From the sequence record OQ174507.1: a stretch of 64,000 nt of DNA. One strand, written 5' to 3'. A program made the translations under genes and the position numbers. The notes below the pieces were generated by a model. That model searched no databases. It was not told the origin of the DNA and saw nothing but the letters and a program-made list of their open reading frames with translations. The number at the start of each line of letters is the position of its first letter. Position 1 is the first letter of the stretch. Below, piece by piece: positions 1 through 38,313 of this stretch. The DNA is from Escherichia phage REP8.

Positions 1-7171
<7,171 letters not shown>

Positions 7172-18388: not shown

Positions 18389-18925
18389 TCAACTTAGTTT
18401 TGCAAACTCTCCGTGGAGTTTCATAGCAGCTTCACAGTAAGCTTTATGGGCTTCTTCAGGGGTGTCATGGTGACCTAAAAACATCTTCTTACCTTTATAA
18501 CTTATCTGTGCGACCCACTTACCAGACTTCTTCTTAAGACTTACACCCTTGTACCCAGATTTATTGGTGACTGGTTTGCCTTTATTCCAAGCACTTTGAA
18601 AGTCATCTGCTTCCCTTAAGTTTACAATCCTGTTGTCAAGTGAGTCTCCGTTGATATGGTCAATGATACCTTTTGGCATCTTGCCATACACGTAAAGCCA
18701 TGCGAGTCTGTGTGCTTTATGTGCTTTCTTGTCAAAATAGATACTAATCTGTTTATGACCACTTGAATCAGTCTGGATATTACCTGCCACCTTTCCTGCA
18801 TAATTACTGTTAAAAACACTAACAGCTCTTGATTTACCTTCTCTGCGAAGCCAAGTAAAGACCCCTGTTTCGGGGTCATAGTGTAGTAGCTCCTTTAAAC
18901 GTTTTTGTGAAATAAAATCCATCAA
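18389..18925 (-). CDS. HNH homing endonuclease with AP2-like DNA-binding domain
   Basis: HINGDSLDNRIVNLR HNH motif plus YKGVSLKKKSGKWVAQISYKGKKMFLGHHDTPEEAHKAY AP2-like segment; starts immediately after the polymerase stop codon. Confidence 0.65.
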   Translation of the reverse strand: MMDFISQKRLKELLHYDPETGVFTWLRREGKSRAVSVFNSNYAGKVAGNIQTDSSGHKQISIYFDKKAHKAHRLAWLYVYGKMPKGIIDHINGDSLDNRIVNLREADDFQSAWNKGKPVTNKSGYKGVSLKKKSGKWVAQISYKGKKMFLGHHDTPEEAHKAYCEAAMKLHGEFAKLS

Positions 18926-19482
18926 TCAATGTACCTCATACCAACTCTTACCAACCTTTGCTGTACCAGTTACAAGTGTTTCTTTCTTCAAACCTAAGTT
19001 TTTTGAAGCTTGCCCATACATCCAGTCAGCAATTGCTTTCATATCATGTGTCATATTCTCTGGGCATTCCCAACTATTTTCGTCGTGATATGCCAGAAGT
19101 AGTCTTGCTCCGATAGCTGGTTTTCGAGCATTCAGTTTTGTCAGGCCATCTTCACAGGCTTTTCTTGCTGCTAGGTTGATGGCCTCATTCTGAATCTGTG
19201 CTTCCGAACTCATCAGGAGGTAGTTCAGTAGTTTATGTGGAGATTTGCACCATATCCATGCTCCAGCGACCCTGATATAACCACCCTTAGCAATTGAAGA
19301 ATTCTTCCCAAAAACCTCTTCCAGAGCCTTTTTAGACGCCTTAAAATCGGCTTCTAAGCTATCAAGTAAACTCTTAATCTTCGGTAGACGCATATAGTAA
19401 GTCTGCTTAGTCAATGCACCTTCCTCTGTAGAAGCTGCCTTAATGGTTTTGGCAAACTTCTCATCACCTGCACCGAACAATA
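18926..19482 (-). CDS. DNA polymerase (family A), exon 2 (C-terminal part)
   Basis: FGAGDEK (motif B continuation), LLLAYHDE (motif C), C-terminal ...WYEVH ending typical of Pol A. Confidence 0.65.
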
Positions 19483-19750
19483 CATCTGGTCAATACACTC
19501 GCAAGGTGTACCAGTTCTCTTATGAACTTCTCCGCATTTCTACGGAGTGTCGGACTATATCACGTAGTAGTAATACTACCGTTGCACTTGGGAATGGTCA
19601 TTAGCTTACCACCCTACTCTACTCAGTTCATACATTAAGTATGCTTTTCGATAGTCTCTGAACGTTCCTCTCAAGAGGCTTCGCTGCTGATTACCGTATC
19701 TTCTCAGACTTAGGCTTCCAGCAATTCACAACGTTTTACATGCGCCACTG
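19483..19750 (-). ncRNA. putative group I self-splicing intron in DNA polymerase gene (boundaries inferred, +/- a few nt)
   Basis: 268-nt ORF-less insertion inside Pol A motif B; minus-strand R-like GTTCAGAGACTATCG (19664-19649) and S-like GATATAGTCC (19564-19550); 5' exon ends in U, insertion ends in G; joining restores KNGIYALLFGAGDEK. Confidence 0.55.
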
Positions 19751-21923
19751 ACGCATAAATGCCATTTTTGGCTTTCTTACGACCTTTTGTAATCTCGTGG
19801 AGAAGTTCCTCATCCTGTGTCTCCCTGCAACGAACAATATCCTCTTCTTTGTTAAGACCAAAGTAAATACTGTTCAGTGTATGCGCATCAGTCCCTGTGT
19901 AGACTTCATAGAGGTCGTTCTCAGCATCATAACGAAGATACTTATCAGTTTCTGGATTAAGATACTTATCGAGATGCTTGCAATAGTATCTGCCATCTTC
20001 TTGCTTAGTGAACTCTACTGACTCTTTACCCTCAGTTACCGCTTTGGTGAACTCTTTATCACCCATAAAGTTACAAAGAAGAACAAGCTGTGCAGAGTTC
20101 TGGTCAACTGAAACGATATTAGTCCCTTCCTCGCAAATCCAAACCTCCCTCATAGGCGCTCCATAGACAGCAGCACCAGACGGTACGTTTACAATACCAT
20201 ATTGTGTCATACGTCCAGTTGAAGTACCAAACACCATTGCACCAGCACTAAGGCGACCATCAGGACGAATCTGGTTCAACCAACCTTTTTCATCATCCTT
20301 TGAGTTCTCAATAGTTCTGCGTCGGTGCATCAAAGTATAGTACTTAGCAATCTTCTGTCCAAGCTCACCTTCAATCGTGTCATAAGATGATTCAGTAAGT
20401 TTTGGTGAAGTACGGATTAAGCAAGGCTCAAGCAAATCTGTGTATTTCTTCACAGACCAGTTATGTTCAATGTACTGTACACCTTCATGCTCAACATAGC
20501 TCAAACCACACCGCTCAACCATTTCCTGCCACTTAGGATGCTTTGTAATCATCTTTTTATTGTCTTTGAAACGACAAACTTTAACAGGGCGACCATCTGA
20601 GTCTTTCTTGTAGTTCCAGTCATCTGGAATCCAACCAACTGATTTCAAGTAGTCTTTAACAACTGCTACCTGAGTCATACGAGAAACTTCAAACTCAATT
20701 GGTGTATACGGTGCATCAATCAAACCTGTGTAGCGACTCGACTCAAGCTCAAAGTGGTTAACAACGTGGCTGTTATAGTACTTCACAGTTTTGACTGTTT
20801 TTACTGGCTTCCAGTCTTTGCATTTCTTACCAATCTTTGCGTTCAACTCATTGCAAATTGCACGAGCATCCTTCATTGCTACAAAACCTTCTTTGTACTC
20901 TTCACCAGTTACAGAGTTGGTTGGTGTATAGCAATTCCGCTTTTCAATGTTAAAAATCTTTGTAGTTGGCTTACCAAATGGCTTGATTTCATATGTCTGC
21001 ATCTCACCGTTACGTACCTGTTGACGATACTTTGTCTTAGGGTACTTGGTAATTCTCTTCAGTCCATCTGCATGACCAAATGCTTCAACATACTCATTCC
21101 AAGCTTTTGCAAACTCTTCTCCAGTGACTTTACCTTTGGTCTTAATAGTTGGAGGTAGATGTGGTTCAACCTCTGAAGCAAGCTCATTAGTCAACTTGTC
21201 AAGTTCCTTTACATGGAACTCCATAAGTTCTTTATCAGCTTTCCAGCCATTGATAGCTTGTTGACTCATCCAGAAAGATGTTTCTTTAGCTCGCATGTAG
21301 GTTTCATAGGTGTCTACGCCACACTTCTTTAGCTTCAGATATTCATTATCCAATGCACGTTTAGTTTTGGCGTTGATACGGATATCTTCTACAACACGAG
21401 TGAAGATTTCTGCATTCCACACACCCCAATGTTCAATCTCTGGTTTACGAACACCAACACGAGCACCCCATGCAGCCAAGCCATGAGCACCTTTATAACC
21501 CTTTGGAGTTGGCCTATCCATCCACTGAACACGAGACTGGATAAGAGAATCCTGAAAGAAATTACTCCACGGTTTACACTTTGGATTATCAAAGTTCCAT
21601 AAATCAGGTGCAATGTGATTGAAAACCCACCAGTCATAACCGAGACCGTTATGGATGCAAAGACGTTTTGCCTTTAACGCAAATTCAACACCTTCACGTA
21701 AACCACCCTTGATGTACTTAGTGTACTTGTGACCGAGGATAGGTTCATCTGTAAAGACCCATACAGGTGGCTCTTCATCGTCAGATTTATAGTCTGCGAA
21801 AGCCATTACGTGCACTTTAGTGAACTCAAGAAGTAAACCATCAGTTTCTGTATCACCAACTAAATGTAAGTTTTTAAAATCTACGTTTTCCATTTTTACT
21901 CCCTCTAAAATCATTAACCTCAT
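19751..21923 (-). CDS. DNA polymerase (family A, T7-like), exon 1 with 3'-5' exonuclease domain
   Basis: DTETDG Exo I motif; VSVDQNSAQLVLL motif A; RKKAKNGIY start of motif B; the ORF then reads into the insertion for 12 codons before a stop. Confidence 0.7.
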
Positions 21924-35071: not shown

Positions 35072-36268
35072 ATGAACAAAGTACAGATTATTAAAAAGAA
35101 TGGCTCACTCGAAGAACCTGATATCAAAAAAGTTTTAACAGCAGTCACAAAGTCAGCTAATAGGGTTGGGTATAAAGAACTCCCGCCAGATGTTACCCAA
35201 GCTCTTGAGTCAGCATTTATGAGGGTTCTGGTAAAATCCACTAAGCAGAATAATTTACTCGTTTCAGTAAATGATATTCACAGTATTGTTGAGGGTGCTT
35301 TGGCAGAAGTCAATCACGAGATTTATGAGTCTTACTCAACATATAGAAATTACCGTAAAGAGGTTGCTCAAAACTGGGATGAACTCTACCAGAAGACTAA
35401 AGATACACTCTTCTTAGGTGACCGTGAAAATGCTAATTTTGACAGCAGTTTAATTTCTACGAAAGGTTCAATTATCCGTGGTTACCTGACTAAAGAAATC
35501 TTTAAACAGTATCATCTAACACCAGAGGAACTTGAAGCCATTGAGAAAGGCTTTGTCTATATCCATGATTTAAGAGACCTGATTTTTGGTGGTATTAACT
35601 GTTGCCTGTTTGACATTGGTAAAGTACTAAAAGGTGGCTTTGAAATGTCCGGCATTGAGTACTGTGAACCTAAATCTGTACTGTCAGCGTTGCAGGTTAT
35701 TGGTGACGTAGTACTTTCAGCAACTGCACAGCAATTTGGTGGTTTTACTTTAGCAGAGATTGATAAGGTACTTGTACCGTATGCGAAGAAGTCTCTACGC
35801 TATCATGCTGAGAAAGCATCATCTTATGGTATCCCTAAAGAGCATTACCACAATTATGTCATGGAGCAGCTACAGATTGAACTGACTCAAGGTTTCCAGT
35901 CGCTTGAAATGAAACTAAACACTGTACCTTGTAGTCGTGGGGATTTTGCATTTACAACTTTGACATTCGGGTTACTTGACTCAGACATGTCTAATGAAGA
36001 CAACCGACTGCAATACATGATTGCAAGTACTCTCCTAGATGTTCGTATGAATGGACAAGGTAAGAGTAAGAAGCCTGTTGTATTCCCTAAACTGGTTTAT
36101 ATTTATGACCAGAAGAGACATAATGAGAATATCTGTCAAGGCCACCTGTACAGTAAAGCTATAGAGTGTTGCTCTAAAGCGATGTATCCAGATTTCTTAA
36201 GTGTATCTGGTCATGGTGCTGTAGCAGAAGCTTTTGAGCGTTCTGGTAAGGTTATTTCACCGATGGGT
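35072..36268 (+). CDS. nrdD: anaerobic ribonucleotide reductase, exon 1
   Basis: ORF ends ...VISPMG then TAA; continuation found in frame at 36585. Confidence 0.7.
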
Positions 36269-36584
36269 TAACAAGCTCTATAGCTCATCTAAAACGTGCC
36301 TAAACAGGGAAACTCTACAGATGTAGACAATCCTGTGCTAAATGATGTACGATGTAAGAAACTATACAACATAGGGGTCTTACATGCCAAATAACTTCGA
36401 ATATGAGTTTGGATACATCTAAATGCCGAACGACTAACCGTGATGAATGTAGCGGTGTAGGGTCAAGCGACTCGAAATGGTACGCTACTTAGAAATAAGT
36501 AGAAGATATAGTCTGGACTTACTGGCGACAGTAAGCAGCTTGAATAAAGCGGGGTAAGCGTAGCGAACTTACCTGAACAACAAG
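36269..36584 (+). ncRNA. putative group I self-splicing intron in nrdD
   Basis: 316-nt ORF-less insertion; 5' exon ends in U, insertion ends in G; S-like AAGATATAGTCTGG (36503-36516) and R-like CGAACGACTAACC (36428-36440); downstream frame encodes CRAFLSPYHNEDGEEFYVGRANIGAVSLNLP. Confidence 0.55.
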
Positions 36585-37532
36585 TGTAGAGCGTTTTTAT
36601 CACCATACCATAACGAAGATGGTGAAGAGTTTTATGTAGGTCGTGCTAACATTGGTGCTGTATCTTTGAACTTACCAATGATTTACCAGTACTCTAAAGA
36701 GAATGGTTTAGATTTCTGGAAAGAGCTTGATAAGTACCTAGAAATGATTCGCAGCTTCCACAAGAAACGCTACGAAATGATTGCTAATATGCCAGCAAGT
36801 TCTAACCCTCTTGCATTCACACAAGGTGGTCTGTACAAAGGGACTAAGAAACCTACTGACAAGGTTGGTTGGGATATCGTGAAGTCCTTCACAGCTTCTT
36901 TTGGGGTTACTGCGCTTGATGAGCTATCTGTTCTTGCTGAAGGTAAACGACTTCATGAAGTTGGAAGCTGTAGTTTTGCATACGATGTTCTGGAATACAT
37001 CAACATGAAAACTGAAGAGTTTAAGAACGAAGATGGCTTCTTGTATGCGGTATATGGCACTCCAGCAGAATCACTTTGCGGAACTCAGCTAAAACAGTTC
37101 AGAGATATGTTTGGCGTTATTAAAGGTGTCTCTGACAAGGAATACTTTACAAACAGTTTCCATATGAATGTTGCAGCAGACATTACACCATTTGAGAAGC
37201 AGGACTTAGAAGAACCCTTCTTTCATATCTGTAGAGGCGGCAGAATCCAGTATGTAAGGGTAGCTAATCCAGAAAACTTATCAGCACTTAAAAGTTGTAT
37301 TACAAGAGGGATGTTGAAAGGTTTCTATCAGGGACTTAACTTTGACTTAGCAATCTGTGAACATTGTGGTAACAGACCAAAGGCTGATGTTGAAGAATGT
37401 GAGGTTTGCCATTCACACGATATCTCTGTGATTAACAGGGTGTGCGGGTACTTGTCATTCACAAAAATTAAAGGTCAGTCTCGAATGAATGACGCTAAGA
37501 TGGCAGAAATTAAGGATAGAGTATCTATGTAA
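36585..37532 (+). CDS. nrdD: anaerobic ribonucleotide reductase, exon 2 (glycyl-radical domain)
   Basis: C-terminal Cys cluster CEHCGN...CEVC and glycyl-radical motif RVCGYLS. Confidence 0.75.
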   Translation, partial: CRAFLSPYHNEDGEEFYVGRANIGAVSLNLPMIYQYSKENGLDFWKELDKYLEMIRSFHKKRYEMIANMPASSNPLAFTQGGLYKGTKKPTDKVGWDIVKSFTASFGVTALDELSVLAEGKRLHEVGSCSFAYDVLEYINMKTEEFKNEDGFLYAVYGTPAESLCGTQLKQFRDMFGVIKGVSDKEYFTNSFHMNVAADITPFEKQDLEEPFFHICRGGRIQYVRVANPENLSALKSCITRGMLKGFYQGLNFDLAICEHCGNRPKADVEECEVCHSHDISVINRVCGYLSFTKIKGQSRMNDAKMAEIKDRVSM

Positions 37533-37685
37533 AACTTGACAAGGTGGTGTGGGTCTTGATAGGCTTACATCACCTTTTTATTGGATGTTAGATATGGCTG
37601 AGAGTATTATTGGGTTGTTCATAGGTTCTGTCTTACTAGGGTTCTTTTTAGGACTCTCTTATTGTGAATTGAGAGATAAGTTAAA

Positions 37686-37886
37686 ATGTTTAAAATATCA
37701 AAAACGTTGATATACATACTCCACATTTTAATCTTCTTCTTTGGGGTTAGTGTTATGGTATGGGGTTTTTCAGACCCACAATGGAGTTTATCATATCATG
37801 GTCAGATGGATTTATGGTCATGCTTCAAACCATTTTTAGGGTTAGCTATAGCATTCAGTGCATTACCAACTAAGGTGAAATTATGA
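37686..37886 (+). CDS. small membrane protein
   Basis: Two predicted TM segments. Confidence 0.3.
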   Translation: MFKISKTLIYILHILIFFFGVSVMVWGFSDPQWSLSYHGQMDLWSCFKPFLGLAIAFSALPTKVKL

Positions 37887-38278
37887 TTAAGTTAAACCAA
37901 AAACAGTTAGAGTGGCTTAAAGATTATGCCTCAGAGTGTGGCTCTTATGAAAAGAATCACGTAAGATACTCAACATTCCACACGACCTTTACATTGTACA
38001 TTAGTGACAACGTTCTAAGTGATTCCGTAGAAGATTGTGCAGCGTTGCCTAATGAGTTGCTTGACAAATTAGTTGTAGTCACTGGAACTTGGTCTGAAGA
38101 AGACGGCCATGAATTATCTAACGATGTTGTCTTCTACAGTCTTGAAAATATCATGAATCCAGAGTACATTATGCTAATGACTTGCGCACAAGACTGTGTG
38201 CCATTACAAAACTTCATTAAAGAACACTGTGAAGAATTTATTACTAAACTGGTCCCTTGTCAGGTAGTGTTTGAATGA
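37883..38278 (+). CDS. hypothetical protein
   Basis: ORF only. Confidence 0.3.
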   Translation: MIKLNQKQLEWLKDYASECGSYEKNHVRYSTFHTTFTLYISDNVLSDSVEDCAALPNELLDKLVVVTGTWSEEDGHELSNDVVFYSLENIMNPEYIMLMTCAQDCVPLQNFIKEHCEEFITKLVPCQVVFE

Positions 38279-38313
38279 GTAAAATAATTAAATAATATTG
38301 GTGAGGTAACTAG

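Follow-up and report, generated by a model that had tools for sequence, protein, structure and literature searches.

A compact group I intron interrupting nrdD in a Felix O1-like phage, very probably derived by deletion from an endonuclease-bearing intron

The window, the whole 64,000-nt stretch of DNA from Escherichia phage REP8 (OQ174507.1) analysed here, carries an nrdD gene for anaerobic ribonucleotide reductase on its plus strand, where all features of the locus described below also lie. Exon 1 (35072–36268) encodes amino acids 1–399 and ends in ...VISPMG; an insertion of 316 nt (36269–36584) follows, whose initial UAA closes the exon-1 frame and whose last base is G36584. Exon 2 (36585–37532) encodes amino acids 400–714, starting with Cys400; from 36585 it reads CRAFLSPYHNEDGEEFYVGRANIGAVSLNLP, and over a longer start CRAFLSPYHNEDGEEF... 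Over the whole region from 35072 to 37532 the window matched Escherichia phage REP9 (OQ174508) and the sibling phages REP10–12, of the genus Felixounavirus, with 100% identity. In the GenBank record of REP9 nrdD is entered as two separate CDS, and the second nrdD CDS in records of this type begins at an arbitrary internal codon and lacks the catalytic cysteine. For an endonuclease-bearing allele, that of the BASEL phage JohannRWettstein (Bas63), GenBank annotation as a spliced gene already exists, with a two-piece joined CDS and an internal homing endonuclease.

Joining 35072–36268 to 36585–37532 produced a reading frame of 2145 nt, that is, 714 amino acids plus the stop. The uninterrupted nrdD genes of ESCO49 and O157 typing phage 11 are also 2145 bp, exactly 316 bp shorter than that of the window, and the joined protein was colinear with these intronless NrdD proteins over the junction (...SPMG|CRAFLSPY...) as well as with T4 NrdD, Cys290 and Gly580 included. 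An initial annotation, made from the sequence, had the NrdD frame ending at ...VISPMG with a TAA at 36269, which is exact (36269–36271), and had the 5′ exon ending in U and the insertion in G, which agrees with the T and G found at 36268 and 36584. It had also described the protein as continuing in frame after 316 nt. The protein does resume at 36585 and includes the glycyl-radical motif RVCGYLS (amino acids 684–690 of the joined NrdD, in exon 2), but it is in frame only once the intron has been removed: 316 is 3 × 105 + 1 and not a multiple of three, so the genomic frames of the two exons differ. With 36666 as the earliest possible translation start in the exon-2 frame, Cys400–Ser426 can be obtained only from a spliced mRNA. 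An intein or other protein-coding insert was ruled out by the length, by the stop codon formed by the first three bases and by the fact that no ORF in the insertion exceeds 47 amino acids.

A T follows both boundaries, which leaves a one-base ambiguity, and removal of 36270–36585 would yield an identical mRNA; we chose 36269–36584 because group I introns have a U before the 5′ splice site and a G as the last intron base. The intron thus begins with UAACAAG and ends with GAACAACAAG, so that AACAAG is found at both ends (36269–36275 and 36575–36584). The Rfam model RF00028 (Intron_gpI) matched the window at 36161–36535 over model positions 1–253 with 55.4 bits (E = 2.4e-11; gathering score 50). 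We did not adopt these coordinates as the intron ends, which were set from the intronless alleles; the match is offset because the model puts P1 and P2 within exon 1, starting at 36161, and ends with P9 (36535), having no positions for P9.1 and P9.2. The score above the gathering threshold, the 316-bp shorter intronless alleles and the fold described next together bear out the initial reading of the insertion as a group I intron interrupting nrdD.

A complete subgroup IA2 secondary structure, without a P2 helix, could be drawn in window coordinates. The internal guide sequence (36276–36289) consists of a P10 strand, CUCUAUA (36276–36282), that directly adjoins a P1 strand, GCUCAUC (36283–36289). 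The latter pairs over 7 bp with GAUGGGU, the last seven bases of exon 1 (36262–36268), placing U36268•G36283 at the cleavage site, and the former pairs with UGUAGAG, the first seven bases of exon 2 (36585–36591). The core contains P3 (36295–36300 with 36479–36484), P4 (36304–36309 with 36331–36336), the P5 hairpin (36314–36318 with 36323–36327) and a P6 region which, with its extension, occupies 36337–36426 and comprises P6 (GC at 36337–36338 with GC at 36425–36426), P6a (36344–36349 with 36414–36419) and P6b (36352–36359 with 36378–36385), the last of these located in the window only. The next region (36427–36484) starts with J6/7 and the 5′ strand of P7 and also holds P7.1 (36437–36440 with 36453–36456), P7.2 (36460–36464 with 36469–36473) and the 3′ strand of P3. 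It is followed at 36486–36535 by the P8 hairpin (36486–36491 with 36496–36501), J8/7, the 3′ strand of P7 and the P9 hairpin (36518–36524 with 36529–36535). The last part of the intron (36538–36584) contains P9.1 (36538–36541 with 36547–36550) and P9.2 (36552–36558 with 36568–36574), both outside the Rfam model, and then a 3′ tail, GAACAACAA, before the terminal G36584. P7 itself pairs GACUA (36432–36436) with UAGUC (36509–36513) and has a bulged C before its 5′ strand. The R-like and S-like elements noted from the sequence are both present, at 36427–36439 (CGAACGACTAACC) and 36503–36516 (AAGATATAGTCTGG), and contain the 5′ and 3′ strands of P7, respectively. The P7 sequence A-[C]-GACUA / UAGUC-U (36430–36436 and 36509–36514) recurs unchanged in the T4 td and T4 nrdD introns, and this sequence match points to the P7 G-C pair beside the bulged C as the putative guanosine-binding site. 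An unaided minimum-free-energy fold recovered P10, P3, P4, P5, P6/P6a/P6b, P7.1, P7.2, P8, P9, P9.1 and P9.2 (z = −2.8). The insertion therefore has the U•G pair in P1, the terminal G, the P3–P8/P4–P6 core and the P3/P7 pseudoknot with covariation that characterize group I introns. It also has, between P7 and the P3 3′ strand, the two additional helices typical of subgroup IA2, P7.1 and P7.2.

Covariation was assessed in six introns: that of the window, those of phi92, navn and F97, which occupy the same Gly|Cys site, and the T4 td and T4 nrdD introns. ORFs and P6 interiors were removed by hand before alignment. The count covers ten helices reliably aligned by MAFFT; P8, P6a, P9.1 and P10 were left out of it and checked in each sequence separately, because the placement by MAFFT of P8 and part of P7.2, as well as of the F97 and T4 nrdD 3′ splice sites, was wrong. 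Across the ten helices and six introns 95% of cells were paired, compared with 33–43% when the partners were slid by 1–3 columns, a comparison that favours the drawn structure since it was derived from one row of the alignment. Both sides had changed in 21 of 54 pairs, and none of 500 shuffles reached the observed value on any measure. P3, P4 and P9 were 100% paired, with compensatory changes in four of the six P3 pairs and in three pairs of P9; such changes were also seen in three of four pairs of P7.1 and four of seven of P9.2, and P7 was invariant in all six introns. The 14 core helices drawn (P1, P10 and P3 to P9.2, P6b excluded) were fully complementary in the window, phi92, navn and F97, with P5 weak in navn (3 bp). 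In the T4 introns 12 (T4 td) and 10 (T4 nrdD) were complementary, the strands of P9.2 in T4 nrdD having been entered at unequal length so that this helix had no valid check there. Drawing by eye gave no convincing P1 for T4 nrdD and no P10 for T4 td or T4 nrdD, and these were omitted from the helix table. The most telling covariation is that of the guide sequence, in which P1 and P10 change along with the exons of phi92, navn and F97: the distal P1 pair is G-C in the window, C-G in phi92 and navn and U•G in F97, and the F97 guide, GAUUGGCA, fits the differing exon 2 of that phage, UGCCGAUC, where the window has CUCUAUA/UGUAGAG.

The intron sits between Gly399 and Cys400. Cys400 aligns with Cys290 of T4 NrdD, the radical-bearing active-site cysteine of that enzyme, and Gly687 aligns with T4 Gly580, its glycyl-radical residue; the intron thus lies immediately before the codon for the catalytic cysteine. 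Phage introns usually target the most conserved codons, and this site fits that pattern. The initial annotation had likened the intron to the one in T4 nrdD. Gene and subgroup are indeed the same, but the site is not: protein alignment placed the T4 insertion, at T181/L182, opposite K281/L282, about 118 codons upstream of G399|C400, so the two are independent insertion sites. Like the window intron, the T4 nrdD (sunY) intron is of subgroup IA2, lacks P2, possesses P7.1/P7.2 and P9.2 and resembles it in the L9.2 loop (GUAGCGAA), and its core is 69.5% identical to that of the window; unlike the window intron, it is 1033 nt long and encodes the GIY-YIG enzyme I-TevII in its 3′ part rather than in P6. 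The T4-type nrdD intron of phage JB75 was 87.5% identical to parts of the 5′ half of the window intron. The T4 td intron (I-TevI) shares the IA2 class, an ORF in the P6 loop and a UAA right after the 5′ splice site, and its 3′ half is 70.7% identical, but it interrupts a thymidylate synthase gene, has a P2 helix and encodes a GIY-YIG endonuclease.

The closest relatives of the intron occupy the same site. In Bas63/JohannRWettstein (MZ501086) and Mushroom (KP143762) the ribozyme is 96–99% identical to that of the window outside the ORF, and the alleles are 742 nt long with a 154-aa HNH_3 protein encoded in the P6 loop, whereas the window lacks 426 bp of that ORF. Introns at the same Gly|Cys point (...SMG|CRSF..., ...YMG|CRSL...) and with the same P2-less architecture are present in phi92 (NC_023693), the Vequintavirus navn and Vibrio phage F97. 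The phi92 intron (279 nt) is ORF-less, its gene being annotated as a 'spliced variant', and those of navn and F97 carry an HNH ORF in the same loop as in Felixounavirus and have guides adapted to their own exons. These phages belong to different families, and their intron cores are just 67–71% identical to the window, with different lengths of P8, P7.2 and P9.x. The nrdD genes of navn (520–4888) and F97 (50–4184) are each annotated in four pieces; that of navn is interrupted at least three times, twice by stretches with ORFs, and that of F97 has two HNH-bearing interruptions and a break at 3803/3804. The gene seems to have been hit repeatedly, in several phage families.

Alignment of the window intron with that of Salmonella phage Mushroom showed the same layout interrupted by a clean gap of 426 bp (142 codons) in the P6 loop, the site of the HNH ORF in Mushroom, JohannRWettstein, navn and F97 alike. 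The Mushroom ORF encodes 154 amino acids with a Pfam HNH_3 domain at residues 43–86, inside the part missing from the window. What is left at 36384–36422 is ATG CCA, the last ten codons and TAA, a 12-codon stub (MPNNFEYEFGYI*) with the deletion junction between 36389 and 36390; the deletion is in frame and the whole catalytic domain is gone. Thus, no intact homing-endonuclease gene lies inside the window intron, and a tblastn search across the window with the HNH protein matched only the 10-aa tail and identified no paralogue. The intron of Salmonella phage RPN213 (292 nt) was shortened by another deletion, which took 24 bp more than the one in the window and so probably measures about 450 bp; it keeps ...GVKEH of the 3′ end of the HNH ORF and has lost the start codon. 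In ESCO56 the ATG of the stub is mutated to ATA. Because the window retains both ends of the ORF and the RPN213 deletion has other end points, the ORF-bearing form is ancestral: the window intron is a deletion derivative of the HNH-carrying intron of its sister phages, and the endonuclease has been lost at least twice, independently. The earlier description of a compact intron without a homing endonuclease ORF was consequently right as to the present state, there being just the stub, but the intron is not primitively ORF-less. The HNH proteins of Mushroom, navn and F97 share 40–50% amino acid identity and are encoded in the same loop, which indicates that intron and endonuclease are an old partnership tied to the Gly|Cys site. 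The P6b stem contains the A and U of the stub AUG and would restrain translation of the endonuclease in ORF-bearing alleles.

Megablast against phage genomes separated the nrdD genes of Felixounavirus into three classes, with 87% query cover in two pieces, with colinear alignment and with an extra 426 bp; intronless, ORF-less and HNH-bearing alleles coexist in this one genus. In an approximate census that includes RefSeq/GenBank duplicates, 223 records had most of the gene, 93 had at least 80% of the intron and 61 had the HNH ORF, short matches of 39 nt to the ORF being taken as ORF-less alleles; the remainder comprised ∼30 ORF-less and ∼130 intronless records. The 154-aa HNH gene is therefore present in the P6 loop in about two-thirds of the intron-bearing Felixounavirus records. 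The same intron, at 99.1% identity, was found in two records labelled as Campylobacter phages, A132 and A126 (MG065664 and MG065668); a further record, A13b (MG065677), is marked UNVERIFIED and classified as Vequintavirus, and the host labels of all three look unreliable.

Among the other Felixounavirus alleles, the intron diverged from that of the window by 0.6–2.5% (4.8% in RPN213), compared with 3.7–7.5% for the exons, or 3.7–6.9% in the alleles whose introns differ by 0.6–2.5%; structural constraint, rather than recent spread, could account for part of this low divergence. The JohannRWettstein intron had 12 differences from the window in the multiple alignment. In REP5, ESCO56, SEP1 and Mushroom every intron substitution fell in loops or in the P6 extension, with the loss of one P6b pair in SEP1, and the single core-helix change in RPN213 (in P9.2) kept the pair; across the four ORF-less alleles no substitution broke a core pair, which speaks for selection on the ribozyme. 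Synonymous codon differences greatly exceeded nonsynonymous ones in both exons of the intron-bearing alleles (e.g., 41:5 and 32:4) and there were no premature stops, a pattern expected only if full-length NrdD is still made.

The distribution among phages was that of a homing intron: a presence/absence polymorphism at a single site was accompanied by a substitution patch in the flanking exon. The patch (36587–36638) was found in all intron-bearing alleles and was absent from intronless ones: the first 60 nt of exon 2 had 12.7 differences between intron-plus and intron-minus alleles, compared with 1.5–6 in every other 60-nt bin, including the last 60 nt of exon 1, so that the patch has no exon-1 counterpart. 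The changes were mostly synonymous, with one Phe-to-His replacement (SPYF to SPYH), and were common to ORF-less and HNH-bearing alleles; one of them (UGC to UGU) improves P10. From its position and distribution the patch looks like a co-conversion tract that arrived with the intron, and it may make the carrier resistant to the endonuclease. The related enzyme I-HmuI contacts mainly the downstream exon, which would fit a one-sided patch.

Two further observations concern other parts of the window. Some 780 bp separate nrdD from nrdG (37533–38313) and contain small ORFs of 53, 66 and 131 aa, of which the last two have no Pfam match. The corresponding spacing is 64 bp in ESCO49, ESCO56 and SEP1, and the gap in Mushroom has a NUMOD3 homing endonuclease inside, so this looks like a second variable, endonuclease-prone spot. 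The other Rfam Intron_gpI match in the window (19530–19813, minus strand, 61.7 bits) lies within a gene for a family A DNA polymerase, which it splits. The ORFs at that locus, all on the minus strand, are 19710–21923, 18926–19480 and 18389–18925; the upstream ORF ends in ...KAKNGIYA, the downstream one corresponds to a C-terminal portion of Pfam DNA_pol_A, and an ORF for a 178-aa HNH_3 + AP2 endonuclease directly follows polymerase exon 2, outside the intron.

Taken together, the sequence comparisons make it very probable that the nrdD insertion is an IA2 group I intron of Felix O1-like phages that lost its HNH gene by deletion. Its guide (36276–36289) would pair with the last seven bases of exon 1 to form P1, with U36268•G36283 at the cleavage site. 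By the established group I pathway, a free guanosine held at the P7 G-C pair, next to the bulged C, would attack after U36268, and G36584 would then take the same P7 site; the 5′ half of the guide would hold exon 2 through P10, and ligation would produce GGU|UGU (Gly399–Cys400) and restore the 714-aa NrdD. The UAA at intron bases 1–3 would stop and release ribosomes at the splice site so that the ribozyme is not unfolded, as in the T4 td intron; a UAA is found at the start of the intron in F97 as well as in T4 td, and three codons in for phi92 and navn. Historically, the intron would have arrived with a gene for an I-HmuI-like HNH homing endonuclease in its P6 loop, specific for the Gly|Cys site, and the in-frame 426-bp deletion in the lineage of the window would have left a compact ribozyme unable to drive its own homing.

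We considered three other explanations. The intron might be a dead relic whose inefficient splicing leaves nrdD effectively a pseudogene, tolerated because the aerobic nrdAB genes, upstream in the window, suffice. Deletion of the endonuclease gene, mutation of the stub start codon in ESCO56 and the coexistence of intronless and intron-bearing phages, which implies that the element is not needed, are all in keeping with such decay; moreover, the phages were isolated aerobically, where nrdD may be dispensable, so their viability is no proof that nrdD works. However, the core helices are all intact, with the changes in the ORF-less alleles confined to loops and the P6 extension, and both exons remain open with a synonymous excess that extends downstream of the intron, so we regard this explanation as improbable. 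Still less credible is that the intron was originally ORF-less and that an HNH gene entered the P6 loop later in other lineages. Endonuclease genes do invade intron loops independently of the ribozyme, and the phi92 intron at the same site is also ORF-less. Yet an incoming gene would leave no ends in genomes that it never entered, and the window keeps the ORF start, the second codon, the last ten codons and the stop in frame, while RPN213 keeps a different piece of the 3′ end; the homologous HNH genes in the same loop of navn and F97 also argue that the pairing is old.

That no splicing occurs at all, with NrdD assembled from two polypeptides, would be in line with the two separate CDS of the REP9 record and has a precedent in Aeromonas phage Aeh1, where nrdA is split by the mobE endonuclease gene and the two polypeptides assemble (recounted in PMC3653736). 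Against this, a second half starting at 36666 would miss Cys400 and the next 26 residues, which are nevertheless conserved, and the intervening DNA is a complete ribozyme with a guide that matches both exon ends; we consider a gene in two pieces extremely unlikely. We therefore retain the reading of a group I intron with a deleted HNH gene.

Under this reading, loss of the endonuclease would not necessarily end the mobility of the intron, since intronless phages could still acquire an ORF-less copy if the enzyme were provided by a relative infecting the same cell. A stronger form of this idea, that the endonuclease-less intron is a successful 'hitch-hiker', spread through the Felix O1-like phages by the HNH endonuclease of co-infecting relatives in trans, with the exon-2 patch protecting its carrier, is speculative, and we think it rather unlikely. 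If true, it would explain an intron divergence of 0.6–2.5% beside exons differing by 4–7%, and the loss of the endonuclease at least twice. A weaker possibility is that splicing beside the codon for the catalytic cysteine gates NrdD production by the translation or growth state of the cell.

The Felix O1 genome paper reported no insertions in these genes in Felix O1 itself (PMC3185647), and the description of phage SPJ41 lists 'two introns' among its non-coding RNAs, with no detail (PMC9951933). In our literature search no paper dealt with the Felix O1-like nrdD intron, with its derivatives lacking the ORF or with the Gly|Cys site common to these phages. The intron is unexceptional within its well-known family of phage introns, the kind itself being textbook material, and it leaves current knowledge of group I introns unchallenged. 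Its main value lies in a correction of annotation, since nrdD is split into two unrelated CDS in REP9 and dozens of related records where one joined CDS is warranted, and in a tidy natural example of the cycle of endonuclease gain and loss. At this one site the genus has the homing-endonuclease life cycle in its three stages: empty, intron with the endonuclease and intron without it. Felixounavirus, several members of which grow easily on E. coli K-12, thus lends itself to the study of intron invasion, trans-mobilisation and decay in a natural setting.
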